Below, piece by piece: positions 33,776-62,878 of a stretch of DNA of 64,000 bases. The position numbers were made by a program, and so were the translations under genes. Source of the DNA: Escherichia coli (GTDB taxonomy: Bacteria > Pseudomonadota > Gammaproteobacteria > Enterobacterales > Enterobacteriaceae); NCBI RefSeq assembly GCF_003019035.1, contig NZ_CP027447.1. One strand, given 5' to 3'. Position 1 is the first letter of the stretch. Every line of letters begins with the position of its first letter. Under the pieces are notes generated by a model. That model saw nothing but the letters and a program-made list of their open reading frames with translations, made no database searches and was not told the origin of the DNA.

Positions 33776-34885
33776 TCACGGGTTAGCGGGGAAAATAGCC
33801 CCCAGTACCGTCTCCTGGCTTGCGCCAGTGACGGAAGGCAGATTTCCTGGTAATCCCGCCAGCGTTCGCCAGGCAAGCCAGGCGAACGCCAATGCTTCCA
33901 TGTCATCGCCACTAATGCCAACGGCATCGGTGGTGGTGACTTCTGTGCCTGGCAGTAATGCCGCCAGACGCGCCATGAGTAGCGGATTACGACTTCCTCC
34001 ACCACATACCATCAATCGTTCGCAGCCACCGCTCAACAAAACTTGTTCAGAAATGGTCACGGCGGTTAGTTCTGCCAGTGTCGCCTGTACATCTCGGGGA
34101 TCAACCCCCGGAAAATGGCGCAAATGGCGCTCCAGCCAGCCGTAGTTAAAGTATTCGCGTCCGGTACTTTTCGGTGCAGGTTGCGAGAAATATGGGTCGC
34201 TGAGCATATTTTGCAGCAGTGGGAGAATGACTTTACCCGCCCGTGCCCACTCGGCATCTTTATCGTAAGGTTTACCGGCCTGACGCCAGATCCAGGCATC
34301 CATCAGCATGTTACCAGGGCCGGTATCGTAGCCCCCTACCGGCTGCCCAGGAATGAGCAGTGACAGATTGGCGATGCCACCAATATTGAGCACCATTCGT
34401 CGCTCGGTTGGGTGAGCCAGCAGCGCATGATGGAACGCAGGTACCAGCGGTGCGCCTTGTCCTCCCAAGGCAATATCGCGACGGCGAAAATCACCGACAA
34501 CCGTAATTCCGGTGCGCGCCACAATTTGATTGTTATCGCCAATCTGTAAAGTGTGTGGTGCCACGCCCGTCGGTTCATGCCAGACGGTTTGACCGTGACA
34601 GCCGATCGCAACGATATCTCTCGCCTGCAGGTTTTGTTCCTTAAGCAAGGCATTGACCGCATCAGCAAAAAGTCGCCCGAGTTGAGTATCAAGTTGTCCA
34701 AACTGCGAAAGTGTAAGCTGCTGGCCCTGGCAAATATCCAGTACAGCCTGTTTCAAAGACACCGGGATCGGCCAGCTCAAACTTGCCAGCTGTGCGACCC
34801 GGTGTTCATCAATTGTCGCCAACACAACATCAACACCATCAAGGCTGGTGCCTGACATAACGCCAATAAAGCGGCCCGATTTCAT
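33776..34885 (-). CDS. anmK: Anhydro-N-acetylmuramic acid kinase
   Basis: 369-aa ORF; last conserved host gene before the prophage. Confidence 0.93.
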
Positions 34886-35000
34886 AGTTCATCCTTTTTC
34901 AATCTGACGTTTGCGCACCACTCAAACATAAACTTTTCGTGAATACTATGCGGAATGACCGATTTTTACCGTTGGTAGTAAAACATTATCTTCAAATCAA

Positions 35001-35060
35001 TGATGCGCCGCGCGATAAACGTACCTATTTCCGTGAGATAAATTACATCGCCGCGGCATT
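35001..35060. repeat. Putative prophage terminal sequence (Mu right-end-like, transposase-binding-like repeats)
   Basis: TGATGCGCCGCGCGATAAACG resembles the Mu R-end TGAAGCGGCGCACGAAAAACG (recalled from memory); repeated CGnGATAAA motifs; lies 78 bp beyond the invertase stop. Confidence 0.45.
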
Positions 35061-35078
35061 TCAATATCAGAAAAAGAA

Positions 35079-35651
35079 TTACAACTCAGCTTGAGTTTGA
35101 AGTTCCTCTACAGGGTGATAACGATAAATCGTCGATATACCGATATCGTAAATAATTGCCAACTGTTTCCTGCTATAGCCATTTTTGATCAGCCTTGCTA
35201 TTTGTTCATGTTGCTCTTTTGTCAGTTTCGGACGACGTCCACCAATACGCCCCTGTGCACGTGCTGCTTCAAGTCCGGCCAGTGTTCGTTCGACTATTAA
35301 TTCACGCTCCATTTCCGCTAAAGCCCCCATGACGTGAAAAAAGAAACGTCCCATGGGTGTTGACGTATCAATGCTGTCTGTAAGACTACGGAAGTTAACC
35401 CCTTTTTCCCGCAGTTCCTCAATAAGAGTGATTAGGTGTTTCATGCTTCTGCCCAGCCTGTCCAGCTTCCAGACAACGAGCGTATCTCCTTCTGATAACG
35501 TTCTGAGCAGCTTTTTCAATCCCGGTCGGGCTGACTTTGTTCCGCTGATTTTATCCTCAAAAATCAGTTCACATCCTGCGCAGTTCAGTGCGTTTCGTTG
35601 TAAATCTGTATTCTGGTCATTTGTTGACACACGAATGTAGCCAATTTGCAT
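35079..35651 (-). CDS. Serine-recombinase DNA invertase (Gin/Pin/Hin family)
   Basis: Start taken at MQIGYIRVSTNDQNTDLQRNAL (190 aa); catalytic-Ser N-terminal motif and C-terminal HTH; closest to Pin/Gin by memory. Track ORF 35079..35846 is over-extended. Confidence 0.92.
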   Translation of the reverse strand: MQIGYIRVSTNDQNTDLQRNALNCAGCELIFEDKISGTKSARPGLKKLLRTLSEGDTLVVWKLDRLGRSMKHLITLIEELREKGVNFRSLTDSIDTSTPMGRFFFHVMGALAEMERELIVERTLAGLEAARAQGRIGGRRPKLTKEQHEQIARLIKNGYSRKQLAIIYDIGISTIYRYHPVEELQTQAEL

Positions 35652-35722
35652 GAAAAATATCCTCTTTGTTTTGTTAAAAATACATAGCTGGTATAGGTGG
35701 GAGTTAAGACGAAAACGTTGGT

Positions 35723-36184
35723 TTGGGGGAAGGCTCTGCACTACCTGTTGGTGTGCCTGTTCCATGGCCGTCAGCCACACCGCCAACAGGGTGGCTGAAA
35801 TGTAACGGTGCAGCATTTTCTTCTGAAATGTACCCCAATCTGGCAAAGGCTTACCCCACGAATAAATTACCGGATTTACGGGGCGAATTTATCCGTGGCT
35901 GGGATGACGGACGAGGTATTGATGCAGGACGAGAGATACTTTCATTTCAGGAAGGCACTATCGTCTCCGGTTTTGATGATAATGATACTGGGGATATCAG
36001 TTCACTTAGCTCAACACAATACGGATTTGGTGACACTCTAACCTCTAATCAATGGGGGGCCATAAATGGCAAAAAGTGGATATTTGATGCATCCAGTAAA
36101 GGTGCACAAAAATATGACTGGTGGGCTTATGTATCAGCTCGTCCGCGTAATATTGCATTTAATTACATCGTAAGAGCGGCATAG
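35723..36184 (+). CDS. Tail-fibre C-terminal alternative cassette A (start-less, inverted relative to the fibre gene)
   Basis: Shares the conserved block GEGSALPVGVPVPWPSATPPTGWLKCNGAAFSSE...RGEFIRGWDDGRGID and the conserved end RPRNIAFNYIVRAA with the expressed fibre; no ATG (the track start is an alternative TTG codon). Confidence 0.7.
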   Translation: MGEGSALPVGVPVPWPSATPPTGWLKCNGAAFSSEMYPNLAKAYPTNKLPDLRGEFIRGWDDGRGIDAGREILSFQEGTIVSGFDDNDTGDISSLSSTQYGFGDTLTSNQWGAINGKKWIFDASSKGAQKYDWWAYVSARPRNIAFNYIVRAA

Positions 36185-36194
36185 AAACGTTGGT

Positions 36195-36671
36195 TTGGGG
36201 GAAGGCTCTGCACTGCCCGTTGGTGTACCTGTTCCGTGGCCCTCAGCCACTCCACCAACGGGCTGGCTGAAATGCAACGGCGCAGCATTTTCTTCTGAAG
36301 ATTACCCCAAACTGGCACAGGCTTACCCCGCGAACAAATTACCGGATCTACGGGGTGAATTTATCCGTGGCTGGGATGACGGGCGAGGGATTGATGCAGG
36401 ACGTGCTTTATTAAGCTTTCAAACTGGGATGCTGGAAAAACACCGCCATATTGTTGTAGCTAACGATGGGTATGACACAAAGGATGAATGGGAGTTGGCC
36501 ACAATTTTCAAAAAAACATATACACAAGGACGGGGACTTGATGCCACAAGTACAGGCGGGAGTCTGATCCCATCACCGACACTTCATTCACGAGGGAGTA
36601 TTGGTAACACTGGTGGTAGTGAAACTCGCCCCCGCAATATCGCATTTAACTATATCGTGAGGGCGGCTTAA
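36195..36671 (+). CDS. Tail-fibre C-terminal alternative cassette B (start-less, inverted)
   Basis: Same conserved 5' block and 3' end as cassette A, with a different central region; immediately follows cassette A. Confidence 0.7.
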   Translation: MGEGSALPVGVPVPWPSATPPTGWLKCNGAAFSSEDYPKLAQAYPANKLPDLRGEFIRGWDDGRGIDAGRALLSFQTGMLEKHRHIVVANDGYDTKDEWELATIFKKTYTQGRGLDATSTGGSLIPSPTLHSRGSIGNTGGSETRPRNIAFNYIVRAA

Positions 36672-36677
36672 TTATAC

Positions 36678-37295
36678 TCAACTGGCTGCTGCCAGAGGCA
36701 TTTCCGGCCAGTTGATATCCGGTGCAGTGCTGATGTCAGTCGCATTAAGCGTATCTATGAAATCAAGCACGGCGTTTAGTTTTTCCGTCTCCTGGGGCGT
36801 CAATCGGCGTCCGGCTCGTAGTTTGAGATTAATAAGCTCAACAGATGCCATTGCCTGTTCCTCAAGTTGCTGACGATGCGCTCCGGCAGCTTCCAGTTCT
36901 GCTGCGTGCTGTCGTCTCGTATCTGTCACCCAAATCTCACCATCCCAGACATCATAGATAGTAGCTGGCTGTTTCACCGTCGTATCAGGAGGGTAATCTC
37001 CCGGTTGTGTGATTTGCACAGCGTTACCATTCTCTGTGCTGTAAACCGTTTCGCCTCTGTGGTCTGGAACATATTTCCAGATGTTCTGGTCGGTATCACG
37101 ACAGACAGCGAAGCCGGGGCGTTTTTCTGGTGGCGCGTCAATGCATGAGTGAGCCGGAATTCCAACACCATAAGCGAGATACTCAACAGTGGCAGAGAGA
37201 TATTCACGGTTTTCAGCATCGTAGTTATAAACGGTAATATCGCCTGCAGTTATAGCGATACCATTCTGATCAAGTACTGCAGCAGCATTATTCAT
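36678..37295 (-). CDS. Tail-fibre assembly protein (Mu U / P2 G-like chaperone)
   Basis: 205-aa ORF of the tail-fibre assembly family; its start overlaps the cassette C stop (TAATG). Confidence 0.8.
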   Translation of the reverse strand: MNNAAAVLDQNGIAITAGDITVYNYDAENREYLSATVEYLAYGVGIPAHSCIDAPPEKRPGFAVCRDTDQNIWKYVPDHRGETVYSTENGNAVQITQPGDYPPDTTVKQPATIYDVWDGEIWVTDTRRQHAAELEAAGAHRQQLEEQAMASVELINLKLRAGRRLTPQETEKLNAVLDFIDTLNATDISTAPDINWPEMPLAAAS

Positions 37296-37819
37296 TAAGT
37301 AGCCCTTACAATATAGTTAAACGCAATATTACGGGGGCGGTTTTCCGTTCCTGTATTCCCTCCGTTGGCACCTAATCTATAAACACCACGAGTGCCAATA
37401 GCACGTAGTGAAGATGGAACTTTTACACCTGACTCATCTGTTTTAACAATCCCGCCATCACCGTATGTAGCCAGTATACCAGGGTTTGTTCCTGCACGGG
37501 TGCTGTTTGCGGCAAGCCCTTCACCAGTCCATAACTCCATATAATGAATATGATCTATAACCGAATGTGATTGTGCATTAAGCAAGGAACGCCCTGAATC
37601 AATTCCCCGCCCGTCATCCCAGCCACGAATAAACTCGCCCCGTAAATCCGGTAATTTATTGGTGGGGTAAGCCTTTGCCAGTTTGGGGTACATTTCAGAA
37701 GAAAATGCTGCACCGTTACATTTCAGCCACCCCGTTGGCGGCGTGGCTGAAGGCCATGGAACGGGCACACCAACGGGCAGCGCCGAGCCTTCCCCTAAAC
37801 CAACGTTTTCATGCGGCTC
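37295..37819 (-). CDS. Tail-fibre C-terminal alternative cassette C (start-less, direct orientation)
   Basis: Frame is open from the stop at 37820-37822; encodes ENVGLGEGSALPVGVPVPW...ENRPRNIAFNYIVRAT; no ATG. Confidence 0.7.
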   Translation of the reverse strand, partial: EPHENVGLGEGSALPVGVPVPWPSATPPTGWLKCNGAAFSSEMYPKLAKAYPTNKLPDLRGEFIRGWDDGRGIDSGRSLLNAQSHSVIDHIHYMELWTGEGLAANSTRAGTNPGILATYGDGGIVKTDESGVKVPSSLRAIGTRGVYRLGANGGNTGTENRPRNIAFNYIVRAT

Positions 37820-38351
37820 TTACGATGTAATTGAATGCAACGTTGCGGGGGCGTGTTTCTGCTGTGCCGACAATACTGGTACTCAGTCCTGTCGCTGTTC
37901 GTTTGTTATTTTTATTCCCTTCGATAAGACAGTTGTAATCGTCATTACCAATTAACGAGTTGGTGGCATCAATACCGTCCGGGGACAAGGCATTAGTTGT
38001 GGAACTTAAAGTCAGCATCTCGTCTGAACTTGGAAGATTTTTTAATGGGGTCTCATTACGTGAAATACCCGCATAAAAAAAGGACTCATGCCTGTGCGCT
38101 TCAAAAGAGTCATCCTGAAGACTTAGCAAGGCACGCCCAGCATCCAAGCCACGTCCATCATCCCAGCCACGGATAAATTCACCCCGTAGATCCGGTAATT
38201 TGTTCGCGGGGTAAGCCTGTGCCAGTTTGGGGTAATCTTCAGAAGAAAATGCTGCGCCGTTGCATTTCAGCCAGCCCGTTGGTGGAGTGGCTGAGGGCCA
38301 CGGAACAGGTACACCAACGGGCAGTGCAGAGCCTTCCCCAAACCAACGTTT
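37809..38351 (-). CDS. Tail-fibre C-terminal alternative cassette D (start-less, direct; G-tract one nt shorter than in the others)
   Basis: Conserved 5' block and RPRNVAFNYIVRAA end; the frame begins directly after the fibre gene's TAG stop; ggtttgggg here versus ggtttggggg in the fibre and cassettes A and B. Confidence 0.65.
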   Translation of the reverse strand, partial: KRWFGEGSALPVGVPVPWPSATPPTGWLKCNGAAFSSEDYPKLAQAYPANKLPDLRGEFIRGWDDGRGLDAGRALLSLQDDSFEAHRHESFFYAGISRNETPLKNLPSSDEMLTLSSTTNALSPDGIDATNSLIGNDDYNCLIEGNKNNKRTATGLSTSIVGTAETRPRNVAFNYIVRAA

Positions 38352-39317
38352 CTATGCTGCTCTCACAATGTAGTTAAAGGCGATGTTGCGTGGACGAGTT
38401 ACATTAAAAAAGGACCCACTTAAAGCAGCTTTGGCACGACCAGCGACGTTACCCAGAATTGCATACCATAAATAATCACTCCTGTAATTCGTTGAAAATG
38501 TTTTATCGCCACCGTAATCAATACTATTTCCGTTACTCATATATGAAATATCAACTGCGGCATCATTGTCATCTCTACCACCAACCAAAGTACCTTTCTG
38601 CCACCCAAGCAACTGGCGACCAGGATCAATCCCGCGCCCGTCATCCCAGCCACGGATAAATTCACCCCGTAAATCCGGTAATTTATTGGTGGGGTAAGCT
38701 TTTGCCAGTTTGGGATACATTTCAGAAGAAAATGCTGCACCGTTACATTTCAGCCAGCCCGTTGGTGGTGTTGCTGAGGGCCACGGAACAGGCACACCAA
38801 CGGGCAGCGCAGAGCCTTCCCCCAAACCAAGGTTTTTGACAAACAGCGCAGGATCAGGAATATCTGCGCCGTTCTGGTCTTTAGCCAGCTTTTCCGCCAG
38901 CTTGTTCAGTACCGTAGTCGCAAAGTTTGGATCATTACCGAGAGCGTCAGCCAGCTCTTTAAGCGTATCCAGTGTCTCAGGGGCGCTGCCTGCAAGCGCC
39001 GCAAGTGCTTTGGCCACAAACTCCGTTGTCGCCAGCTTTTTGCTGTTATCGCCATTTGCAGGTGTAGGTGCTGTTGGTGTGCCGGTGAATGTCGGACTGG
39101 CTTTCTGTGCGTACTGGGTATGCGGGTCTGCTGCCGCGATGTGTTTCGCAAGGTCAGCCCCGCCTTTTTCAACCTGTTGCTTCAGGTACAGCGTGCGGCT
39201 GGCCAGTTGTTTACCCTGACGGTTAGAAATTCCGTCAGGTCCGCCCAGAACGGGGTCAGAGACCTCAATCTGGTAGATGCCGTCTTCCCACTGCGGGGTT
39301 TCGGGTAGATTTGCCAT
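38352..39317 (-). CDS. Tail fibre protein (constant N-terminal part plus the currently fused variable C-terminal part)
   Basis: 321-aa ORF; residues from about 165 onward carry the same conserved block and end as the cassettes. Confidence 0.88.
   Translation of the reverse strand: MANLPETPQWEDGIYQIEVSDPVLGGPDGISNRQGKQLASRTLYLKQQVEKGGADLAKHIAAADPHTQYAQKASPTFTGTPTAPTPANGDNSKKLATTEFVAKALAALAGSAPETLDTLKELADALGNDPNFATTVLNKLAEKLAKDQNGADIPDPALFVKNLGLGEGSALPVGVPVPWPSATPPTGWLKCNGAAFSSEMYPKLAKAYPTNKLPDLRGEFIRGWDDGRGIDPGRQLLGWQKGTLVGGRDDNDAAVDISYMSNGNSIDYGGDKTFSTNYRSDYLWYAILGNVAGRAKAALSGSFFNVTRPRNIAFNYIVRAA
38817..38842. promoter_or_regulatory. Candidate invertase crossover site (hix/gix-like 26-bp imperfect palindrome) at the fibre constant/variable junction
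   Basis: TTCCCCCAAACC-AA-GGTTTTTGACAA; the right half matches the hixL half GGTTTTTGATAA at 11 of 12 positions (consensus recalled from memory); an equivalent GGTTTGGGGGAA half-site starts every cassette. Confidence 0.4.
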
Positions 39318-50607: not shown

Positions 50608-50946
50608 TCACACCCCGCGCAGGATACGAATGACGTCGCCTTCACCCCCGGCTTCATCAAGTGCAATACCACAGGATTTACCGTCGCCGGACTGCGGCAC
50701 GGCTCTGGCCTGAGCATCTGACTGAACAGCCACACCACGGCTGACCGCAGCACCGGCCTCAACAGCAATAATGCCCAGAACGCTCACCGGCGTGCTGTCG
50801 CCGGTAACAGCATCCACATCGGCAACCCCGAGCGCTGCGGCACCGGCTTTACAGGGGGTATTATCTGCCCCGACAAAACGCTGCTGTGCCAGTTCTGCCC
50901 CTGCCGTTACGGTTGTAATCAGAATGACCTGCTGAGTGGTTCCCAT
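50608..50946 (-). CDS. Hypothetical head-associated protein
   Basis: 112-aa Ala/Gly/Val-rich ORF directly downstream of the major head gene. Confidence 0.45.
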   Translation of the reverse strand: MGTTQQVILITTVTAGAELAQQRFVGADNTPCKAGAAALGVADVDAVTGDSTPVSVLGIIAVEAGAAVSRGVAVQSDAQARAVPQSGDGKSCGIALDEAGGEGDVIRILRGV

Positions 50947-50955
50947 AACGCCTCC

Positions 50956-51909
50956 TTATTTACTGATACCGGTGATGAGATACCCGGCATCGCCACCAAC
51001 CACGGCGACTTTGTAGATATCGGTATAACGGCAGTACTTCACCTTGCCACCGGCTCCGTCGTATTTGTCAGCAACAGGCATCCCCTTACGACGCAGAGTG
51101 TAGCCGAAGGACGGCTCGTTCTCGTCCGCGCTGTCCGCCCCGGGCTGCGGTTTGCCGACATAGTGCAGCATCAGGTTGTCTCCCCAGATATCCGCCGGCA
51201 CGCTGTTTTTATCCATTGCCGCTTTCATGGATGGCAGGGAAACAGGAGCACCGATGACGATCTCTTCGATCTGAAAGAGGTCCTGCAGGATCTCCGTGGT
51301 GATGCGCTTACGCTCGTTGGCTCCGATGGCTGCCTGAAGTGCTGGATGGAACTTCAGCAGCGCCATCACGCCGGCACCCATGGTCATCAGGTTAGGACGC
51401 AGCCCTGTGGCCGTACGGACCGCTTCCATACCGGCTTCAATCACCCCGATGGGGTCACCCTTACCACCGGCCCAGCGGTCGCCGGACGTCAGTTTTTTGA
51501 CGTGTCCGGTACGGTAGACCTTTTCATCCTGAGCCAGACGGGCAGCGATAAGTTCACGGCGCAGGTTCACGCCATTCGTGGCGCGACGGATGGCCTTGCT
51601 CTCCTCGTTAAACATGGACTCCGCCTGTTCGCGGTAATCCACCGGCGCTGCCAGATCGTGTTCACCCAGCACCAGATCAAGCGTGTCGGTTTTCTCACGG
51701 ACCAGAACATTGCTGTCCGCCCCGACGGCGCGCTCGGTGTCATATTCCACAAAGGCGGTTTTCCCGAAGGTCGGTACACGCACGCCTTCCTTGTCCGTCA
51801 GCACGACGGGGAAAATACGTTCGCCGATGAATGCGGCATTTTTATAGCCACGGGCGATACTGGTCAGTACCGGATCAACGACACGTTTACCTTTTAAGTA
51901 ATCAGACAT
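50956..51909 (-). CDS. Major head subunit (Mu gpT-like)
   Basis: 317-aa ORF downstream of the protease/scaffold gene. Confidence 0.85.
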   Translation of the reverse strand: MSDYLKGKRVVDPVLTSIARGYKNAAFIGERIFPVVLTDKEGVRVPTFGKTAFVEYDTERAVGADSNVLVREKTDTLDLVLGEHDLAAPVDYREQAESMFNEESKAIRRATNGVNLRRELIAARLAQDEKVYRTGHVKKLTSGDRWAGGKGDPIGVIEAGMEAVRTATGLRPNLMTMGAGVMALLKFHPALQAAIGANERKRITTEILQDLFQIEEIVIGAPVSLPSMKAAMDKNSVPADIWGDNLMLHYVGKPQPGADSADENEPSFGYTLRRKGMPVADKYDGAGGKVKYCRYTDIYKVAVVGGDAGYLITGISK

Positions 51910-51923
51910 GATTTCTCCTTAAA

Positions 51924-53039
51924 TTACAGGCAGCGTGCGACAGCAGCCTCATAGCTGATGCCTTCTTTTTTGGACAGGGCCACTGCTTTCTGATGCAGGG
52001 CCAGACGCTCAGGATCGGCTTCCGCAAACTCCGCCACATCCACCTTCACCGTGTCGCCGACACGCTCTTTTGTGGCCTGTTCGGCGAAATTCATCACCGG
52101 CTCCCCGTCGGAGAGCAATGAACGAAAGGCGGTGGCCAGCGGTGTGCGGCTTTCCCCCTCAGCAAACTCCACCGGCTTGTCGCCACCGGCGACGGCATCC
52201 AGCAGGGCAACCACCACGGAGGAGGCGCGGGGAGCCAGACGGCCCTCTGCGACAAGTTTTTCTGCAAAGGCCACATTGTCCTTATGCAGTTGCTCCTGTC
52301 TGACCTGTGCATCACGCGCATCGCGATCAGCAGCCTGCTGCTTCAGGCGGCGGTTCTCCTCCTGAAGGGCTTCAATCTCTTCTTTTGTCATCGATGATTC
52401 CTCGTTACTTGCGGAAGACGGCCCCGGGCCTGTCTCACTGAATTGGGCACCTGCTGCATCCTGCGACAGTGTGTCGCGGTACGCCTCTTCGCGCAGACTG
52501 TTGAGCTGCCATTCCGGCAGGACTTTTTCTGCCTCGTCCAGACTGAAGCGGGCGATCAGAAAATCGCGCAGCTTTCCCCACAGGGAGGCATTCGTGATGG
52601 CCTGCCAGTCGGCGAACTCCACCACACCTTCTTCCTGCTCACTGAAGGACACCTGTTTCAGCCCCTTGACGGAAGGTGGCTGTGCCCCGAGAAAGCCCAC
52701 ATGGCGCAGGTAGAGCACGCCGGGCTTCGGATTGGACGGTGAATCCGGGAGGTAGAAAGAGGCGGACACTTTTTTGAATCGTCCGTCGGTGACCATCTCA
52801 GCAAACTGCGGGTCCAGCTGGGCAGGCTCTGCCATCAGATCGACGCCGCTGAGCGACAGGGCTTTCACCCAGCCCCACGCCGGGTCTTCCGTTCTGGGAT
52901 GACCAATCACGAGTGGTGCTTCATGGACGGACGGGTCATAGGCTTTCACGCAGGCGGCAAGATCGTCTGGCGTGAACGGCAGTTTTTTGCCGTGCATATC
53001 GGTATGAGTACCGGCTTTAAAAATGTGAATGGCTGACAT
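51924..53039 (-). CDS. Head maturation protease / scaffold (Mu gpI-like)
   Basis: 371-aa ORF; N-terminal protease-like domain and C-terminal coiled, charged scaffold-like region. Confidence 0.85.
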   Translation of the reverse strand: MSAIHIFKAGTHTDMHGKKLPFTPDDLAACVKAYDPSVHEAPLVIGHPRTEDPAWGWVKALSLSGVDLMAEPAQLDPQFAEMVTDGRFKKVSASFYLPDSPSNPKPGVLYLRHVGFLGAQPPSVKGLKQVSFSEQEEGVVEFADWQAITNASLWGKLRDFLIARFSLDEAEKVLPEWQLNSLREEAYRDTLSQDAAGAQFSETGPGPSSASNEESSMTKEEIEALQEENRRLKQQAADRDARDAQVRQEQLHKDNVAFAEKLVAEGRLAPRASSVVVALLDAVAGGDKPVEFAEGESRTPLATAFRSLLSDGEPVMNFAEQATKERVGDTVKVDVAEFAEADPERLALHQKAVALSKKEGISYEAAVARCL

Positions 53040-53253
53040 TTTGCTGTCCCGCGTTATGTTGTCGGAGACAGTTTGTGAGAAATGCAGGCCCGGCGATTTT
53101 AATCTGCTTTAGAAAACATCAGGGGAGAAGGACAGGGAAAGCAATGCGGTGAACCGGAAGCGGTTATAAAACAGAGGCTGTAAAGCCTTTATAAAGGTAA
53201 TACAGCCCCTCATTCGCTGGCAATGATAAATCACCCGCCTGAAGAGAGAAAAC

Positions 53254-53712
53254 TCAGCGACGGGCCGCTGATTCAAGATGGCGGACAATGGTATCGAGGA
53301 TGGGGATTACCACTTCAGGCTGTAGTTCTCCATCCCCCGTCACCGGCAGGAACGGGCGGGCCGGAAGTTCAACAGACTCATTACGCCCCGTTTTACCCCC
53401 GAACTGGTGAATGGCACCGTAAACAACGTTGGTCCCCACAACAGCCTGCCGGGCGTCATGGTCGGTTGATACTGACCCCATCAGACGCCCGGTATCCTGC
53501 AGTGTCTGCCCGTCACGTTCTTCCGCTGCCAGCGAGGGCATCCACCCCGGACGCCCCTCATCAAGAAAGTTAAACTGTGTTTCCGCCAGCAGGGTTCCGG
53601 CGATTTTGCGCATCGCGGGCTCCAGGTCTGTGGCAGCAAGATCCAGCGCACGGAGGCTCCGGCGCAGGGATTTATCGTTAATGGTGATACTGACCAGGTT
53701 ATCGGAAGCCAT
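53254..53712 (-). CDS. Virion morphogenesis protein (Mu gpG-like)
   Basis: 152-aa ORF between the F-like and I-like genes. Confidence 0.7.
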   Translation of the reverse strand: MASDNLVSITINDKSLRRSLRALDLAATDLEPAMRKIAGTLLAETQFNFLDEGRPGWMPSLAAEERDGQTLQDTGRLMGSVSTDHDARQAVVGTNVVYGAIHQFGGKTGRNESVELPARPFLPVTGDGELQPEVVIPILDTIVRHLESAARR

Positions 53713-53714
53713 TG

Positions 53715-54536
53715 TTATCCTCTCAGTTCCTGTTGTGCCAGTGGCTGAAGCGTACCCTGATAGCGGGCCAGGTCGGGACGGTATGCTGCCCCCGGTGCAT
53801 AAGACCAGCCGACGTCGGTGGTCACCTTCGTGGTGCCGGTATTAAAGGTGGCCACGTTCCGCATTTCGCCGGTTTTCTCTGAGACCAGTTTCAGTTCCTG
53901 GCCCATGGCAGAGCCGGAGCTGATAACCTTCAGGCCCCGGGCACGTACATCCGCCGCACTCAGGGCAATCACACTACAGCGGCAGCGCCAGCCGTTCGGC
54001 GGGTAAAATGCCTGCCAGAACGGGTCATCCCAGCGCAGCACCAGACCATGCAGCGCCAGATGGCTCCTGCGGGTATGGCTGTCGTTGATGCCGGTATACA
54101 TCCAGTACGGCCTGTCGTCGACGTTTTCCATCTGCTCCGCCCAACGACCGGCGCTGTAGAGTACGGACATATTGGTGCGAAAGATGGTGTCGAGCCGCCA
54201 CGGGCTGCCCTGCTGAATGGTGACCGGCTCACCCGTTACCGGGTCAGTCGTGTCACGTGGTCCCCACCATCCCTTACGCTTCAGCACCGGCTCCAGCTCC
54301 TGCCGGAACCAGCGATCGGTTTTTCCTTCATCGACAGCCTGCTGCAGTGCCCCGCGAATATCTTCCAGAATATCCAGGCGGGTCACTTTAGCGACGGTAA
54401 AGGCGCGGGCATGGGCTTCCTGCCACATTTCTTCCCAGTCCCAGGTAATCTGATACCCTTTGGACTTCAGGTAACTGACTGCCCGCTTCGGGGGAAGCGT
54501 CATGCAGTACGCCAGTTCAGCCGTTGTCACGCTCAT
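53715..54536 (-). CDS. Minor head protein (Mu F-like head morphogenesis)
   Basis: Start chosen at MSVTTAELAY; overlaps the portal gene's 3' end. Confidence 0.8.
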   Translation of the reverse strand: MSVTTAELAYCMTLPPKRAVSYLKSKGYQITWDWEEMWQEAHARAFTVAKVTRLDILEDIRGALQQAVDEGKTDRWFRQELEPVLKRKGWWGPRDTTDPVTGEPVTIQQGSPWRLDTIFRTNMSVLYSAGRWAEQMENVDDRPYWMYTGINDSHTRRSHLALHGLVLRWDDPFWQAFYPPNGWRCRCSVIALSAADVRARGLKVISSGSAMGQELKLVSEKTGEMRNVATFNTGTTKVTTDVGWSYAPGAAYRPDLARYQGTLQPLAQQELRG

Positions 54537-56013
54537 GCAGACGCCCCCGGATATTTGCCACAAAGAGAATGCGGGCCAGCCGCTCCTGCAGATCGTCCGT
54601 GTTCATCTGAGGGTAGAGCTCCGCCAGTTCGCCCAGCAGCTCAGACGGGTTAACCCCGTTTTCGACCCGCTTAAACAGAGGTGCCAGGACGGGTTCCAGC
54701 GTGCCATTTAACACACCTCCGTTCATCAGAATGTCCAGTGCGTCGTCAAGCTGCTGTTGAGCCTGAATATCGGCATCAATCGCCTCGGCAAATGACAGCG
54801 GCAGCATGTTCTTCTCGCGTTCTGACGGTGGTGTCTCGTCAATATCGCCGTCCTGCAGCTGGTACTCACGCTTGAAGTATTGCGGGGTCAGACGCAGACC
54901 CGCCCGGGTGAGTTTTTCGTCGCGGGTGGCACGGGTGTCATCAATGGCCTCCTGTTCCCACATGGCCCAGACCGGACACGGCACATCGCCGAAGTTCAGG
55001 GTGACCACCGTTCTTATGACCTGATTCACTGCCGCCTGAATGATGTCCGCATCCGCATCGCGGATATCAGCCGTCACCTCCAGCCCGGCCTGTGCAGAGG
55101 CCTTGTTACTGTTCGCTTCCGTGGTCTGATTCTGACCGAGTAATGCAATGGAGATCTCACTGCGTGACAGTGTGATCAGCTCGCGGAATACCTCGCTGCT
55201 GTCCGCCTTGCCATCCGCTGCTTTGAGTTCGATACTGCTGTCATCGGGGATGGCGGCCACCGCGTCCTCCACCATCTGCTCCATGGAGTCCAGCAGTTTT
55301 TCAATCTCTGCATCATTTGCACCCCTCGGGTGCTTACCGATCACCCACGGGGAGCCAAACTTTTCGGCAAAGCGGAGCCAGAATTTCATCCCGCCTTTCT
55401 TGAAGGCGACCGGCCAGAAGCACATGGACAGGTCCGGGAAACCGTAAGGATTGTCATAGGATGCATCCTGTGCCGGCACCACGAATTTTGACGGTGACAG
55501 CAGCTCACCCTCCACACCCGCATCACGCGCCCGGAAGCGCAGGCAGTTGTCCGTATCAAACTGGAACCACTCAGGTGGTTTGCCGACAATATCCGTCACC
55601 GCCCACGCCCTGACCGAACGGCCCCACATGATTTCACAGGGCTGATACCCGTAGAGCACGGCATCGCTCATCTCACCGATGATGCGGGACAGATCCAGAT
55701 CGTCGAGCATGTCGCGGATGAAACGGAAGACCCGGGCAGAAGCGTGACCGCGCTCCAGTCCACGCTCCAGCGATTTGAGCGCTGCTTTACGTCTGCGGAT
55801 ACAGCCCCCGACCAGCGGGTCGGTGCGCAGTTCGCGGTAGATACGGATATCCCGTCCCTGAGCCTTGAGAATGGGATCAGGATTGGGCAGATACATGCCC
55901 AGTCCGTAAAAGTCGATCGCGCGGCTGCGGGAGGCAATCTGCGCGGTCAGTGATTTCTGAGGCTCAGAAAAAGCAACAAATTCATCGGGTGAAACCCAGA
56001 TACCCCTCGCCAT
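54517..56013 (-). CDS. Portal protein (Mu gp29-like, DUF935-type)
   Basis: 498-aa ORF immediately after the large terminase gene. Confidence 0.85.
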   Translation of the reverse strand: MARGIWVSPDEFVAFSEPQKSLTAQIASRSRAIDFYGLGMYLPNPDPILKAQGRDIRIYRELRTDPLVGGCIRRRKAALKSLERGLERGHASARVFRFIRDMLDDLDLSRIIGEMSDAVLYGYQPCEIMWGRSVRAWAVTDIVGKPPEWFQFDTDNCLRFRARDAGVEGELLSPSKFVVPAQDASYDNPYGFPDLSMCFWPVAFKKGGMKFWLRFAEKFGSPWVIGKHPRGANDAEIEKLLDSMEQMVEDAVAAIPDDSSIELKAADGKADSSEVFRELITLSRSEISIALLGQNQTTEANSNKASAQAGLEVTADIRDADADIIQAAVNQVIRTVVTLNFGDVPCPVWAMWEQEAIDDTRATRDEKLTRAGLRLTPQYFKREYQLQDGDIDETPPSEREKNMLPLSFAEAIDADIQAQQQLDDALDILMNGGVLNGTLEPVLAPLFKRVENGVNPSELLGELAELYPQMNTDDLQERLARILFVANIRGRLHERDNG

Positions 56014-57329
56014 CAGAATCCCTCCAGTATATGACCAGCCTCACGGCGGTGACGCGAACGGGCCATCACCGGCCCTGACGGTCCGTCAGTGGCGTTTATT
56101 GCCAGAAAACAGGCCCATGTGCGGTCGGCGTGACCTGCTGCATCACTTTCGGCCACAAAGCGGGGAGTTCCGGTAGGCCCGGTAACCTTGCGAAGTTTAT
56201 GCAGATCACTGCGCAGGACCACATCTCCCGCCGGAATACGCAGGCGGCGGTCCTCAAACATCTCCCTGCCACGGGTCGCGAGGGTGAGCTTGTTCGGGCT
56301 GTTAAATATCACCCCCTCCACACGGCTTCTGCCATGGCGACCCTGTGCATCCTCCACCGGCTTTTCTCCCATCCCGGTCTGATCCATACAGCAGCGCAGC
56401 ACGCGGTAACGGAAAAATACGTCATCCAGCAAAGCATCCTGCTCAGCAAAGGTGGCCCGTTTACGGGTGATGATTTCCCGGGTCCAGTAGACATCCCCCA
56501 CCTGTTCAAGCACCCAGATGACAAACAGGTCATTACGAACAGCAATATCCACCCCCACAAAGCAGGGGCCACCCGTATAGTGCACCGGCAGCCCGGCAGC
56601 ATCGTGCTCCACGCCGTCAATCAGTTCAAACGTCAGCCAGGCCGATGCCTCATCCAGCCACTTCAGTTCAAACTCCTGTGCCCAGGCGTCATCATCGTTG
56701 AGCGCCTGTCGCATCTGTGCAATATCCCGCGGCAGACCATCACGCACGGCACGGTAAATATCCACGATGTGACGTGACCAGACATTTTCAAGGGCGTTGC
56801 TGGTCATCAGTTCATAAAACTTGTTTCCCTTGCCGTTCGGTGTCGATGTCACACGCAGTCTGTAGCCGTTGGAAATGACCGGAAACAGAGCGGTCCAGAT
56901 TTTGCGACTGTCGGCATGGAAGGCGAACTCATCCAGAAAGACGTTAGCCGCAAACCCACGAGCCGTGTCGGGATTCGCCGGCAGGGCCGTGATACGGGAG
57001 CCGCCGGGTAACTCCACCTCAAGCATGGTGTAGCGTTCGCCGCTTTCAGCACGGTAATAACTTTCCACCTCACGGGCCGCCATCCGGTAGGCGCTGCAGT
57101 GTTTTTTCACCCCCTCCACCATGGCTTCTTTTGCCTGACGCTCCCCGCGCGAGAGGATCACCCAGCGTGTACGTCCCCCTGAGGCCTCCGTTTCAAAACA
57201 GTCATCAACCAGTTCCAGCGTGGTGGTGAACGTCTTGCCCGTCTGACGGGCAAACATACCAATCTTGAAACGGGCACGATCCAGAAACCACGACTGCTGA
57301 TAGGGATACAGCTGAATGGCCGCTGTCAT
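56013..57329 (-). CDS. Terminase large subunit
   Basis: 438-aa ORF with Walker A-like ARQTGKT near the N-terminus and a C-terminal nuclease-like domain. Confidence 0.88.
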   Translation of the reverse strand: MTAAIQLYPYQQSWFLDRARFKIGMFARQTGKTFTTTLELVDDCFETEASGGRTRWVILSRGERQAKEAMVEGVKKHCSAYRMAAREVESYYRAESGERYTMLEVELPGGSRITALPANPDTARGFAANVFLDEFAFHADSRKIWTALFPVISNGYRLRVTSTPNGKGNKFYELMTSNALENVWSRHIVDIYRAVRDGLPRDIAQMRQALNDDDAWAQEFELKWLDEASAWLTFELIDGVEHDAAGLPVHYTGGPCFVGVDIAVRNDLFVIWVLEQVGDVYWTREIITRKRATFAEQDALLDDVFFRYRVLRCCMDQTGMGEKPVEDAQGRHGRSRVEGVIFNSPNKLTLATRGREMFEDRRLRIPAGDVVLRSDLHKLRKVTGPTGTPRFVAESDAAGHADRTWACFLAINATDGPSGPVMARSRHRREAGHILEGF

Positions 57330-57880
57330 GAGATCACCCCGTAAATCTGTTCCCGCACCATCTTCAGGGTTTCCAGACTCAGGCGGGTGTCGCCGGACTT
57401 CGCCTGTTTTTCCAGAGCATTCATCCGCGCCTCAATTTTTGCCAGCACCTCGGCCCGGAATCGCTTGTGGGTCACCGAAGCCCGTACCAGTGTGGCTATA
57501 CTTTCCGAAGCAGTGGCCAGCAGTTTTGCGCGTTTTGCAGGATCATCACTTTCCCCGATTTCCTGCAGACGCATCAGAACATCCAGCATCTCGGTCTGAA
57601 TCAGTGCCATCATCCCGGCAGAACGATCGTCCGCCTCGTCACCGGCTTCCTGCGCCATCAGACGCGCGGCCTCGGTGGCGGCGCGGATGCGGGCCAGTTG
57701 TCGCTCCATTTTGTAGCCAAACCGCTGCAGGGAAGAGCGGGTGATGACGTATCCCTTCTCCTTCAGCAGGGCTTCCAGCCGGGCATATCCACTGAAGTTA
57801 TTCTCCGTCAGTGCCCGCTCCAGCCAGCGGCGGACCTCCGTCGGCAGAGAATCAATGCTGCTGCGACGTCCCATAATCAC
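57326..57880 (-). CDS. Putative terminase small subunit (Mu gp27-like)
   Basis: 184-aa ORF whose stop overlaps the large terminase start. Confidence 0.65.
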   Translation of the reverse strand: MIMGRRSSIDSLPTEVRRWLERALTENNFSGYARLEALLKEKGYVITRSSLQRFGYKMERQLARIRAATEAARLMAQEAGDEADDRSAGMMALIQTEMLDVLMRLQEIGESDDPAKRAKLLATASESIATLVRASVTHKRFRAEVLAKIEARMNALEKQAKSGDTRLSLETLKMVREQIYGVIS

Positions 57881-58188
57881 TCACTCCAGTATTTTTCCGG
57901 GCGGGCAATACCCGGGCCGCATTCCACGGTGTATTCCACAATATCCACACCAAGGCGACTCAGATCGGCAAACCAGTCACCGGACGGTCTCTTCTCCAGC
58001 TCCACCATTTTGCGATCTGCCAGATAATCAAGCTCCCGGCGCAGCTCCAGTTGCGTGGTGTCCGGGTAGATGGCACGGGACACGTCCAGCAGCAACGTTT
58101 CGCTGGCGGTGTAAGGGCGGGTTTTGTTCAGGGCAACCAGCAGACTCCAGCGCAGGGATTCGCGGCGTACCCGGGTAATATCGACCAT
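57877..58188 (-). CDS. Hypothetical protein (Mu gp26 position)
   Basis: 103-aa ORF. Confidence 0.4.
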   Translation of the reverse strand: MVDITRVRRESLRWSLLVALNKTRPYTASETLLLDVSRAIYPDTTQLELRRELDYLADRKMVELEKRPSGDWFADLSRLGVDIVEYTVECGPGIARPEKYWSE

Positions 58189-58514
58189 TATTGACCTCCG
58201 GTATTGCGGTACTGCTGTACCACTTCCAGTTTGTTGTAAAGTGCGTCCAGTTTGGCCTCGATGACTGTCTGGCCACGGATATAATCCTCGCGACGGACAT
58301 AATTCAGCGGTAAATCCGCTTTAAATCGCATAAATTCCTTTTCCAGCTCGCCCCAGTTGGAGGCGGACTGTTGCAGGGCCTGTTCAAGGGAGGCGAATCG
58401 TGCCGCCTGGCGTTCTTCTGTTTTACTGAACAACCATTTGGCGAGCCCTCCAACAAACCCCATGAAGGTGAGCAGAAAACTCACCACCGTCCAGAATTCA
58501 ACCTGCAGTGTCAT
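58188..58514 (-). CDS. Hypothetical membrane protein (Mu gp25 position)
   Basis: 108-aa ORF with one N-terminal TM helix. Confidence 0.4.
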   Translation of the reverse strand: MTLQVEFWTVVSFLLTFMGFVGGLAKWLFSKTEERQAARFASLEQALQQSASNWGELEKEFMRFKADLPLNYVRREDYIRGQTVIEAKLDALYNKLEVVQQYRNTGGQ

Positions 58515-59164
58515 TTCTGTAATCCTTCCCGTTCATCCAGCAGCGCGTTTATCTGGTTTCGCCAGCGACGACATTGCCCTGCGTTGTCGATGATGTTGGC
58601 GAGGACGTCACGCTGGGAGACACCCGAATTGCGTAACCGGGCGTCAGCGGTTTCAGGTTGCCCGGTCGCTGCGCCAGTGCCGGTGCCAGCGGCGGCAGTT
58701 GCGTCTGAATGACCGGTGTCGACGGATGCGTTGTCATACCCGAGTGCGGCGTTGTACTGGCGCACGAAACCGCGAGTAAACACGCACTCAATGGGATGGC
58801 TCTTACCTTTTTCATCAATCCAGCGCTGTGTGACATCGTTAATTTGCCCCTGTAGTTGTTTGTTCAGGCTCTCCAGTTGAGCAATCTGCTCAAGATAACC
58901 GGCTTCAGCCCGCTGCCCGGCGGCCACCTGCTCCTGATACCGTTTTGCCCATGCTCGCAACGCAGCGTTCTCAAGCATTGCCTGCTCCGTTTTGTATGTG
59001 TCGAATGCTGACTGCAACTCACTGATCGCCTTATCGCCGTCGCGCGTGGCGTTTTCATGCCCGCTTTTGTAGCCCAGGTAATAAAGTCCAATCAGAAAAG
59101 CATTTATGAGCACAGCCAGCAGCAGACTGCGCCACGGCAGATTTTTTAGCAGGTTAGTCCACAC
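58511..59164 (-). CDS. Rz-like inner-membrane spanin
   Basis: 217-aa ORF with an N-terminal TM helix and coiled-coil periplasmic region; contains an embedded +1-frame lipoprotein ORF. Confidence 0.65.
   Translation of the reverse strand: MWTNLLKNLPWRSLLLAVLINAFLIGLYYLGYKSGHENATRDGDKAISELQSAFDTYKTEQAMLENAALRAWAKRYQEQVAAGQRAEAGYLEQIAQLESLNKQLQGQINDVTQRWIDEKGKSHPIECVFTRGFVRQYNAALGYDNASVDTGHSDATAAAGTGTGAATGQPETADARLRNSGVSQRDVLANIIDNAGQCRRWRNQINALLDEREGLQK
58549..58815 (-). CDS. Rz1-like outer-membrane lipoprotein spanin, embedded in the Rz-like gene
   Basis: MKKVRAIPLSACLLAVSC signal/lipobox followed by a Pro-rich sequence; ATG at 58813-58815 checked by hand. Confidence 0.6.
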   Translation of the reverse strand: MKKVRAIPLSACLLAVSCASTTPHSGMTTHPSTPVIQTQLPPLAPALAQRPGNLKPLTPGYAIRVSPSVTSSPTSSTTQGNVVAGETR

Positions 59165-59882
59165 AGCTGCCGCCCCCCCATGTCAGATAACGGGGGGCCA
59201 GTTCGTGCAGGATGCGCTGCGGATAATGGCGGTTCTCCCGCCAGCTGGCAGCATTGCGTCCGGCATTCACCGTGGCGACATGCCCGAACCAGCGGGTACT
59301 GTCCAGGCCTTTCTGTGATGCTAGCTGCCTGTCCCGTTGTACCCAGCCCAGACCACCGTTATAGCCCGACAGTGTCATGGCCATACGTTCGCAGTCACTG
59401 GCGGCGCTGACGCGCTGCCACAGCCAGCGGTCATAGCTGACCAGCGCCCGGATGGCCCATGCCGGATTAAACGGCTCACGGCTGTTAAGCCCCGGCATCA
59501 GCTGACTTATCCAGTCAGCAGTGGCGGGCATGAACTGCGCCAGTCCCTGAGCGCCAGCCGGCGAGACCGCATCAGGTCGCCAGCCGCTTTCCTGATGCAG
59601 TTGCGCAGCGAAATCGGCCACCGGCGCAGACAGTCCCCATTCAAGCCGGGCATTACGGATCACATCATCGCGATACTGCAGCGCAGCCTGCGGAGGCTGC
59701 GCTGCGCGGGCCTGACTGAAGAAGCCGCCACACCAGAGCAGCCAGACAATCACCAGGTTGCCAGCAAGCTGCCACCAGAAGCTGTATTTATCGTTACGTG
59801 GTTCTCCGTGTCTGATGGCGGTTACGCCCAGACCAAAGGCGAACAGAATAATGAGGGTGATTTGAGGCCAGTTCATGGTCAC
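59154..59882 (-). CDS. Lytic transglycosylase (SLT-domain) endolysin with N-terminal hydrophobic segments
   Basis: 242-aa ORF; SLT catalytic region LHQESGW...GLAQFMPAT; two N-terminal hydrophobic stretches. Confidence 0.8.
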   Translation of the reverse strand: MTMNWPQITLIILFAFGLGVTAIRHGEPRNDKYSFWWQLAGNLVIVWLLWCGGFFSQARAAQPPQAALQYRDDVIRNARLEWGLSAPVADFAAQLHQESGWRPDAVSPAGAQGLAQFMPATADWISQLMPGLNSREPFNPAWAIRALVSYDRWLWQRVSAASDCERMAMTLSGYNGGLGWVQRDRQLASQKGLDSTRWFGHVATVNAGRNAASWRENRHYPQRILHELAPRYLTWGGGSCVD

Positions 59883-60262
59883 AGTCCTGTTGCCACAGCC
59901 AGACAGACCGCTGCAACAATCAGTGCACGGCGGATTAACGCAGCAGAAAATACAAGGTGAAGGCCGGTCTGCACAGGGAAACGCCCTTCAGCCATCAGCC
60001 TGTCTTCATGTTTCAGGTACTGACCGGGACGGGCTTTGGGGAAGAGTGAACGGTCAAGCCAGTAACCCAGCACTGCTGCCAGCGTGATGAGTGCCAGCTT
60101 GTAGATCACAACAGGCAGCTGCTGTGGCGAGACCAGAGCGATGGTGCCCAGCAACAGCACTGAGGTCAGCAGCCAGCCGCTGAGGCGAGGTTTTTTAACA
60201 GGGGGAATGAATTTTTTCAGGTTTTTCATGTGTGTCTCCTTGTCTGGTGGAGACAGCATCAC
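59879..60262 (-). CDS. Putative holin / lysis-associated membrane protein
   Basis: 127-aa ORF with about 3 predicted TM helices, first gene of the lysis cluster. Confidence 0.45.
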   Translation of the reverse strand: MMLSPPDKETHMKNLKKFIPPVKKPRLSGWLLTSVLLLGTIALVSPQQLPVVIYKLALITLAAVLGYWLDRSLFPKARPGQYLKHEDRLMAEGRFPVQTGLHLVFSAALIRRALIVAAVCLAVATGL

Positions 60263-60359
60263 AAATACAGGGCGCGAAGGATTTTAAAGCGCGTTAAGAG
60301 AGCCGGGGATACGGGATGTGCAGGATAAACGATGAATTATTCACAGAGGAGAATACGAT

Positions 60360-60785
60360 ATGACGCAGACACTGAATCCGGTCATCACTGTCACCGTGTC
60401 CGGTCCTGTGGGCAGCGGTAAAAGTTACGTACTGGCGCGGATAGAAGAGATGGTGAAACAGGAACCCGGAAACAGCGTCATTGTCGATGCTGCTGACGTG
60501 GAGAATGAGCGCCGTATGAGTGGGGATGATCTGAGCACATGGCAGAAACCACAGGCAGGTACAATTATCCGACTGGAAGAATACACTGAGCGGGTAACTC
60601 TATCATATAGTGAGGAGCGCATTTGCCTGACGAATGCACTGCTGGAAGTTATATGTCCCGAAGGCAAGAGCCCCTGGATACTACCCGATGCTGTACATGC
60701 CGCAATTGCTGCATTGTTCGTATTATACGATCAGGAGCTGGTTTTAATGGAGTTATGTAAGGTTATTAAAGCTACAGAAAAGTAA
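60360..60785 (+). CDS. Small P-loop (Walker A GPVGSGKS) protein, hypothetical
   Basis: 141-aa plus-strand ORF with a good Shine-Dalgarno (gaggag); oriented opposite to the late operon. Confidence 0.5.
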   Translation: MTQTLNPVITVTVSGPVGSGKSYVLARIEEMVKQEPGNSVIVDAADVENERRMSGDDLSTWQKPQAGTIIRLEEYTERVTLSYSEERICLTNALLEVICPEGKSPWILPDAVHAAIAALFVLYDQELVLMELCKVIKATEK

Positions 60786-60860
60786 AAATATTATCGGTAT
60801 CCTGTGGATGATAAAAACACGCTACCCACAGGATTACTTGTATAAAACCGTGGATAACAA

Positions 60861-61355
60861 CTAGATAAAACCATCATAGAAGTCATCCCTCTTACGAGAC
60901 CTGATACGAACTGGATTTGGCTCTCCTTTCAACCATACAGCACTGTTTTGACCACAAACCGGACACATGCAAAAACTGTCTTTTCGTATATGCAGGATAC
61001 TTTTCAGGTTTTTGGAATCAAAACAAGTCTGGCAAATATAATGTTCAGTTTCATCGTTTCCCGTATAACGATAAGCATAGAAGCCTTTTTCTTCACTCAG
61101 TAACGTCAGTTTATAATTACCGCGAAAGTTAAGAAGGTCTTCCAGAGAGCGAATTTTCTCTTCCAGATTGGTAATGGTTTTTTGCTGTTCTCCTAGCTTG
61201 CTCGTTACCTCAAAGAACTGCCCCTGTGCTTCAATAATTTTACTCTGTAATTCACTGGTCAAAGCGGCCTGTTTTATTTGATCACGCTCTTTTATTATTT
61301 TCTGAGCAGTACTGCTGATATAGCCAAGAGCTGTTAATAAAGCGTTTGTATCCAT
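60861..61355 (-). CDS. Hypothetical coiled-coil protein with C-terminal Cys4 zinc-ribbon-like motif
   Basis: Start chosen at MDTNALLTALGY; ends CQTCF...CMCPVCG; sits in a visibly AT-rich stretch (about 60800-61400). Confidence 0.5.
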   Translation of the reverse strand: MDTNALLTALGYISSTAQKIIKERDQIKQAALTSELQSKIIEAQGQFFEVTSKLGEQQKTITNLEEKIRSLEDLLNFRGNYKLTLLSEEKGFYAYRYTGNDETEHYICQTCFDSKNLKSILHIRKDSFCMCPVCGQNSAVWLKGEPNPVRIRSRKRDDFYDGFI

Positions 61356-61557
61356 AGCACCCCGATATCCTCTAAACCACATTAACAGAAATCACTTCAT
61401 CCCTGCCGCATCATGAAAGAACGACCAGCCCGGCACCCGAAAGCCGGGCTGGTCATCGTCCCACAGGAATGCACTGTGAGCCGACCGAGGTTCAGTCAGT
61501 CTCGCGAGACCAGACTAGCCTGCCATATTTTTAATAATTGTAAAAGGCTTACAGATT

Positions 61558-62322: not shown

Positions 62323-62329
62323 AACAGAA

Positions 62330-62352
62330 CCGGAAAGCACAATGCTTTCCGG
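62330..62352. terminator. Perfect 10-bp stem hairpin between the convergent methylase and repressor genes
   Basis: ccggaaagca-caa-tgctttccgg; no strong T-tract. Confidence 0.4.
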
Positions 62353-62438
62353 TAAATCAGCCCATTCCTGCCATGCTACTGACGGCGCTTTCTGAAAGCG
62401 TCCAGATCAACCACCTGTCCTTTGTGTCCGGGTCAGAA

Positions 62439-62786: not shown

Positions 62787-62878
62787 TTTTGTCCAATACC
62801 TATTTACATGTCCCATTTTTGGGATAATAATCTAACATATATAGAGCAAACATCATTGCGTTAATAAAGGAGGCAACA
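62787..62878. promoter_or_regulatory. Divergent promoter/operator region of the putative lysogeny switch
   Basis: 92-bp AT-rich gap between the divergent HTH genes, with a strong Shine-Dalgarno (aaggagg) for the plus-strand gene. Confidence 0.4.

Follow-up and report, generated by a model that had tools for sequence, protein, structure and literature searches.

Position 35001 as the invertase-side terminus of a BcepMu/B3-group transposable prophage in the anmK-slyB spacer of Escherichia coli

The anmK-slyB locus and the prophage that interrupts it

We examined a 64,000-nucleotide stretch of Escherichia coli DNA (the window) that carries the host gene anmK. The sequence upstream of anmK, which in E. 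coli SCU-301 forms an uninterrupted spacer to slyB, runs here into a prophage. The features of the locus, in window coordinates, are as follows.

33776-34885, minus strand: host gene anmK, an open reading frame equal in length to the annotated anmK of SCU-301
34995-35000: predicted target hexamer AATCAA, host DNA, single in the empty site and expected to recur just outside the far end of the prophage
35001-35078, plus strand: non-coding prophage terminal segment, equivalent of the BcepMu right end; begins with TG and has 100%-identical copies elsewhere
35012-35020, plus strand: subterminal repeat 1, GCGATAAAC, positions 12-20 from the tip; candidate transposase-binding site
35035-35043, plus strand: subterminal repeat 2, GAGATAAAT, positions 35-43 from the tip; candidate transposase-binding site
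35079-35651, minus strand: Gin/Pin/Hin-type serine DNA invertase (190 aa), reading toward the tip and anmK
35652-39317: invertible multi-cassette tail-fibre region with five repeat copies of ~220-230 nt each
36678-37295: tail-fibre assembly gene, among the cassettes
38352-39317, minus strand: currently expressed tail fibre
39320-60300, minus strand: late genes, with P2-like tail/baseplate, Mu-like head, large terminase, a Mu gp27-like protein and a lysis cassette
61558-62322, plus strand: Dam-like D12-class DNA adenine methyltransferase (phrog_56, E=2e-99; PF02086 in an identical locus)
62439-63428: immunity/early-control region, laid out as BcepMu genes 12-17
62439-62816, minus strand: repressor-like HTH gene, facing the early regulators
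62879-63067 and 63114-63428, plus strand: early regulators, reading away from the late genes and toward the far end
63439-64000, plus strand: start of a DUF3102-like early gene that precedes the transposase, mapped from a 100%-identical locus in GCA_013069285.1

For comparison we took the intact anmK-slyB spacer of SCU-301; its flank and the window are 100% identical over 401 bp. In the alignment the two sequences agree up to ...CTTCAAATCAA, with the last common base of this stretch at 35000; past this point SCU-301 reads TAATCATCATG, whereas the window reads TGATGCGCCGCGCGATAAACG. Prophage sequence starts TGATGCGCC at 35001, with TG at 35001-35002, and its tip lies 115 bp from the anmK start codon. 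Since the T at 35001 is common to the window and SCU-301, the window by itself does not place the junction to the base. The base is fixed by relatives of the prophage, whose differing flanks all switch to the common sequence exactly at the TG. A preliminary description of the window, made from the sequence alone, had ended host similarity about 115 bp upstream of anmK and read TG as the first two bases of the element, and the comparison with SCU-301 and the relatives agrees with it on both points. That description had also counted 78 bp between the tip and the invertase stop and noted the lack of a com/mom-like module. These coordinates hold: the invertase stop codon begins at 35079 on the minus-strand frame, so that 35001-35078 comprises 78 bp without an ORF of com or mom size. 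A search for promoter-like or terminator-like sites within 35001-35078 returned none.

The gene closest to the tip, the invertase, is annotated as a recombinase family protein in relatives, where the equivalent 190-aa gene has Resolvase and HTH_7 domains. Its DNA shares 78-89% identity with phage Hin/DNA invertase genes, and its matches to NCBIfam models fall below cut-off. In the adjoining tail-fibre region, two of the repeat copies lie on one strand and three on the other, each heading an alternative fibre C-terminus, and the cassettes occur in other orders and numbers in relatives. The invertase switches the C-termini of the tail fibre and has no part in integration. Inversion of a tail-fibre segment has been described for EC958 prophage Phi2, which adjoins ycaL in ST131 (PMC4134206).

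The Mu-like head genes of the late region comprise Mu F, Mu G and a Mu-type portal. The sequence between 38625 and 56031 is 98% identical to the annotated prophage of A31; Pfam detects Portal_Mu, Phage_Mu_F, Phage_P2_GpU, GPD and Baseplate_J in identical or near-identical loci, and PHROGs matches in the late region include the portal and the terminase. Between the lysis genes and the methylase lies a variable slot (60360-61382) with ORFs of 141 aa (plus strand) and 164 aa (minus strand) that fall into PHROGs families without assigned function; part of this slot, 60760-61358, has no match in A31, M-17 or A20 and is present in many other assemblies. The Dam-like methyltransferase (61558-62322) belongs to the immunity/early region, in a prophage without com/mom; other Mom-less Mu-like prophages are reported to carry non-specific adenine methyltransferases (PMC3299994).

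The visible 29 kb of the prophage is colinear with intact relatives, whose complete copies are 37-38 kb long. In these relatives the genes past DUF3102 code for an rve transposase of 589-593 aa, an ATPase of the AAA_22/ExeA type, Gam, GemA and Mor; the far end comes next, and no integrase is annotated in the complete copies. Cargo and immunity region are mosaic among E. coli relatives. The early operon diverges from the late genes and has the reverse orientation of that in Mu, which places Mor at the far end and the transposase ~6-8 kb inside that end. We observed two architectures of the Mor-side end: in one (loci L003 and L010), Mor is followed directly by the tip, ...AAGTCTAATCA, and in the other (L004, L012 and L041), Mor is followed by a 210-aa protein, a 53-aa ORF and then the tip, ...ATGTCTGATCA. 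This 210-aa protein has index entries in over 10,000 blocks of a public protein collection.

Terminal repeats, target duplications and insertion sites

Identical copies of the 78-bp terminal segment (100%) occur at 10 places in nine other complete E. coli genomes, with different host DNA beside them each time, including otsA, rlmI, fepE, ygjJ, an ail/lom gene and the malZ-proY spacer. The two subterminal repeats within the segment are in equal orientation and 23 bp apart. We compared eight ends read inward, namely the window end, the invertase-side end of A20, four far ends, and the left and right ends of BcepMu. In all eight, both BcepMu ends included, TGA comes first and GNGATAWWY stands at positions 12 and 35. 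By itself this 9-mer is not significant in the window (22 matches against 12.1 expected); the significance of the repeats comes from their fixed position at both ends and their conservation as far as Burkholderia, not from the frequency of the motif. The repeats had been written as CGnGATAAA in the preliminary description; they are real, but the literal motif fits the first copy only, the second reading TGAGATAAA. On the strength of their conserved position, the repeats at 12-20 and 35-43 are good candidates for two transposase-binding sites per end, which would be analogous to R1/R2 of Mu, and the tip-proximal repeat (35012-35020) would be bound by the transposase subunit that acts at the tip.

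The resemblance to Mu-type ends that had been noted earlier is present at the very tip, which agrees with Mu attR in register at 17 of 24 bases; only 1 of 127,910 window positions scores as high. It fades inward: over both sites the match drops to 20 of 46, with a spacing of 23 bp as against 22 bp in Mu, and the Mu ends are without the GNGATAWWY motif of the group. The right end of BcepMu has TGAAGCG..GC.CGA in common with Mu.

For a survey of target duplications, we fetched both ends of the element in several genomes with the identical end and in A20, which has variant ends. Termini of the form 5'-TG...CA-3' together with an exact 6-bp direct repeat are found in 6 of 6 simple insertions among the relatives in which both ends are readable:

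A31: insertion in rlmI, repeat AAAAGC
M-17: insertion in otsA, repeat GCTGGA
CFS3292: insertion in the malZ-proY spacer, repeat ATGCAT
MS20655: insertion in a 4Fe-4S binding-protein gene adjoining torS, repeat GGTCGT
JNEC-KY180: insertion in fepE, repeat ACAGGA
A20: insertion in the dcuC-dpiA spacer, repeat TGCCGG

Every relative examined has the terminal CA at its far end. In A31 and M-17 a repeat of 5 bp is excluded because the terminal base of the element would then have to vary between copies, and one of 7 bp is excluded because the seventh base disagrees. When the empty sites of otsA and rlmI are rebuilt with the hexamer present once, the resulting sequences are found in other genomes, ungapped and with 100% identity over 294 bp. 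The 5-bp duplication predicted in the preliminary description, ATCAA, is therefore replaced by a 6-bp one, and AATCAA is the expected repeat for the window copy.

In E. coli strain 97.3 the flanks, CTCAGT and CATCGG, do not match and come from different genes, and for this reason we left it out of the duplication count. Its copy (NZ_CP061758.1, ends at 2433414/2469592) has a fragment of an IS4321 transposase at one end and a fragment of an arylamine N-acetyltransferase at the other, and is best read as rearranged after insertion.

All fetched loci together show 10 different flanks on the invertase side and 28 on the far side, a diversity that rules out site-specific integration. These many flanks, the TG...CA ends and the short target duplications in relatives bear out the earlier proposal of a prophage boundary made by transposition. 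An integrase with an att-type repeat, which the preliminary description had named as the contrary outcome for the far end, is absent in relatives, and a DDE (rve) transposase with an AAA+ partner is present instead. An A occupies position -7, just outside the 6-bp target, in 5 of the 10 distinct invertase-side flanks. No mirror-image bias appears at the other side; either chance or a weak preference in the choice of target may account for the A.

Transposase and family relationships

The transposase was studied in relatives, including the copy identical to window 50861-64000. In the TnpA of that copy, Pfam detects the rve core domain only and no Mu-specific domain. With a relative's TnpA as query, phmmer returned no MuA chain among its matches to PDB sequences, and hhalign of a TnpA profile built from 7 sequences against MuA gave a probability of 0.4%. 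In tblastn searches TnpA matches PhiKM at 98% identity, KP12 at 93%, BcepMu and phiE255 at 68-69%, and B3 at 57%; Mu and D108 are not among these matches. The nearest curated NCBIfam models are IS481 and IS21, both below cut-off. An AlphaFold model of TnpA, computed from a shallow 7-sequence alignment, has a mean pLDDT of 59.8 with a catalytic core below 50. Queried with this poor model, Foldseek places TnsB of Tn7-like/CAST elements first (E to 4e-10, TM-scores ~0.14-0.29) and retroviral integrases next, with MuA not in the top 50, which hints that TnpA might be a multidomain DDE transposase of the TnsB/MuA kind.

The genome of BcepMu is syntenic gene for gene with the element, and its transposase is annotated in GenBank as a Tn552/IS1604 rve enzyme. 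BcepMu TnpA has been described as unrelated to MuA and as belonging to the Tn552/IS1604 family, in a phage with a bottom-strand early cluster and a P2-like tail (PMC2771037). The order shared with BcepMu and phiE255 runs Mor, GemA, ATPase, rve transposase, DUF3102-like gene, divergent repressor, lysis genes, Mu-like head and P2-like tail, and the ends of BcepMu are likewise TG...CA, each with GNGATAWWY at 12 and 35. BcepMu (genus Bcepmuvirus) differs in having a single tail-fibre gene and an acyltransferase at the equivalent end and no inversion system (PMC2771037), whereas in the E. coli element the fibre region is invertible and made up of several cassettes, with an invertase 78 bp from the tip. 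The two have no similarity at the nucleotide level, and their hosts differ.

Pseudomonas phage B3 (Beetrevirus) also has its transposase beside a DUF3102 gene and an ATPase; in B3-like genomes the early operon is inverted and the transposition proteins are different when compared with Mu (PMC5977238). B3 differs from the E. coli element in being a siphovirus with other late genes and a Pseudomonas host. A 6-bp target duplication and TG-CA ends are reported for B3, and ends of this kind beside a 6-bp repeat have been described as the footprint left by a transposase of the B3/Tn552 family (PMC8705779). Tn552 itself, in whose rve family (Tn552/IS1604) the literature and the BcepMu GenBank annotation place the BcepMu/B3 TnpA, encodes a p480 transposase and a p271 ATP-binding protein and makes 6-bp repeats (PMC3276174); it is a 6.5-kb staphylococcal resistance transposon and not a phage.

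Mu shares with the element a temperate, transposable myovirus lifestyle, TG...CA ends, two adjacent right-end subterminal repeats, an invertible tail-fibre segment with a Gin-type invertase near the right end, and Gam, Mor, portal, F and G. It differs in the sequence of MuA, in its 5-bp as against 6-bp duplication and 22-bp as against 23-bp repeat spacing, and in having c-ner-A-B at the left end, read in the direction of the late genes, with com and mom between gin and the right end, whereas the window element has a P2-like tail and no com/mom. The "Mu-type" label of the preliminary description does not hold in the strict sense, since the TnpA of relatives is BcepMu/B3-like without detectable similarity to MuA and the early operon is inverted.

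Known members of this lineage are EC958 prophage Phi2, Escherichia phage PhiKM and Klebsiella phage KP12, with 86-94% nucleotide identity over most of the window prophage and transposases that are 93-98% identical. Of 5,426 complete E. coli genomes, 533 have the Mor-side end, in most cases beside ycaL, and ST131 prophages have previously been assigned to Bcepmuvirus. The window copy differs from the rest of the lineage in its insertion site and in its exact invertase-side end, a rarer variant found in nine genomes. The ends, repeats, 6-bp duplication, rve transposase with ATPase, layout and many insertion sites of the BcepMu/B3 group are all found, partly in relatives, and the element is an ordinary member of this well-described, very common group and of an already known kind.

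Together, these results show that 35001 is the true end of a transposition-inserted prophage of the BcepMu/B3 group. In all probability, 35001-35078 is the tail-fibre/invertase-side terminus of a ~37-38 kb prophage that transposed into the anmK-slyB spacer. In the mechanism we propose, TnpA, an rve-type DDE enzyme that would be encoded ~29.4 kb from the tip, binds two sites per end, pairs both ends and nicks at the terminal 5'-TG...CA-3'. TnpA and the adjacent AAA+ ATPase would then join the 3' ends to the target with a 6-bp stagger, and gap repair or replication would leave a 6-bp duplication of the kind seen in six relatives. During lytic growth, as expected from the family, the same ends would serve replicative transposition, with a Mu-type terminase and headful packaging.

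The far end of this copy and consequences of the insertion

For the window copy the transposase, the terminal CA and the duplication lie beyond the stop of the window, and we infer them from relatives. One of these, on contig AATQUL010000004.1 of GCA_013069285.1, is 100% identical to window 50861-64000 over 13,140 bp. It is the only copy found with 100% identity to the window over its overlap, and its contig stops before the invertase-side end. Assuming colinearity with this copy for coordinates past the window end, the transposase gene would start ~354 bp past the window and the far tip would be at window-equivalent position 72,271, ~8.3 kb past 64000, which gives an element of ~37.3 kb. The hexamer AATCAA (34995-35000) should recur there, right after the terminal ...GATCA, so that the far junction is expected to read ...GATCA, then AATCAA, then TAATCATC. 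A simple insertion thus predicts ...GATCA followed by AATCAATAATCATCATG ~8.3 kb beyond the window or, more fully, ...CATTTATCTCA(T/A)GTCT(G/A)ATCA, AATCAA and then TAATCATCATGAATG running into slyB.

We searched for this junction in other sequences. None of 5,426 complete E. coli genomes has the observed anmK junction, and scans for the observed junction and for far-junction patterns with duplications of 3-8 bp gave no match in genome or metagenome contig collections. Look-ups of identical proteins, made with the junction-spanning ORF, window-specific cargo, the fusion protein of the expressed tail fibre, the 210-aa protein near the end and the transposase of 593 aa, led to insertions at many other sites, none of them adjoining anmK or slyB. 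In GCA_013069285.1 the far end of the prophage abuts glcC (flank CGTACA) and not slyB, which reflects either a second transposition of the phage or a rearrangement of the window copy.

The second of these options is part of a broader reading in which the end at 35001 is real but the copy has been rearranged, for instance by recombination between two copies of the prophage, or truncated, so that its far end is not at slyB and no duplication flanks it. The strain 97.3 copy is a precedent, some genomes hold two copies of the prophage, and the glcC-side location of the 100%-identical far end would fit. Yet simple insertions with intact duplications make up 6 of the 7 relatives in which both ends were read, the visible 29 kb is colinear with intact relatives, and transposition of the phage would itself give an identical copy elsewhere; we regard such a rearrangement as unlikely. 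A genuine Mu-family (Muvirus) end, with MuA acting at R1/R2-like sites and a 5-bp ATCAA duplication, would account for the TG start, for the 17/24 match of the tip to Mu attR and for the invertible tail-fibre segment with its Gin-like invertase near the end, as in Mu. It is contradicted by the transposase of relatives, in which Pfam, phmmer, hhalign and tblastn find no similarity to MuA, and by the six measured duplications, all of 6 bp, with A31 and M-17 excluding 5 or 7 if the tip is constant. The inverted early operon and the absence of com/mom also speak against Mu, and the reading is very improbable.

The recombinase gene 78 bp from the boundary could in principle point to a site-specific prophage or genomic island whose serine recombinase serves as the integrase at an att boundary. 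That gene, however, encodes a 190-aa recombinase of the invertase type beside inverted repeats in tail-fibre genes, the identical end abuts 10 unrelated flanks without a common att sequence, the flanking repeats are 6-bp copies of whichever target was hit, and complete relatives have no annotated integrase. We give this explanation practically no weight.

The insertion splits the divergent control region of anmK and slyB, and the expression of either gene could change. In the empty site a PhoP-box-like sequence, TGTTTA-N5-GGTTGA, occurs toward slyB, 19-35 bp past the insertion point; if it is such a box, the slyB promoter has probably been left whole beyond the prophage. The invertase gene is oriented like anmK and no terminator-like site separates the two, which makes read-through across the 78-bp end into anmK possible; the insertion may have brought anmK under transcription from the prophage and severed it from the half of the spacer that adjoins slyB. 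A further reading concerns the ends themselves: the likeness of the tip to Mu attR and the R1/R2-like arrangement, in spite of a transposase with no detectable sequence similarity to MuA, could reflect conserved end recognition, in which case Mu and the common BcepMu-type prophages of E. coli could interfere with or mobilise each other's ends. Taken jointly, cross-recognition of Mu- and BcepMu-type ends and transcription of anmK from the prophage are decidedly speculative readings.

For the group as a whole, the label "Mu-type" gives the wrong boundary rule: the features to seek are TG...CA ends with a 6-bp duplication rather than a 5-bp one, and the transposase is to be sought ~6-8 kb inside the Mor end and not at the tip. 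Prophages of this group are common: ~10% of complete E. coli genomes, the ST131 lineage included, have the Mor-side end. Its members insert in genes such as otsA, rlmI and fepE, and precise boundaries are therefore needed to spot gene disruptions and prophage-mediated rearrangements.
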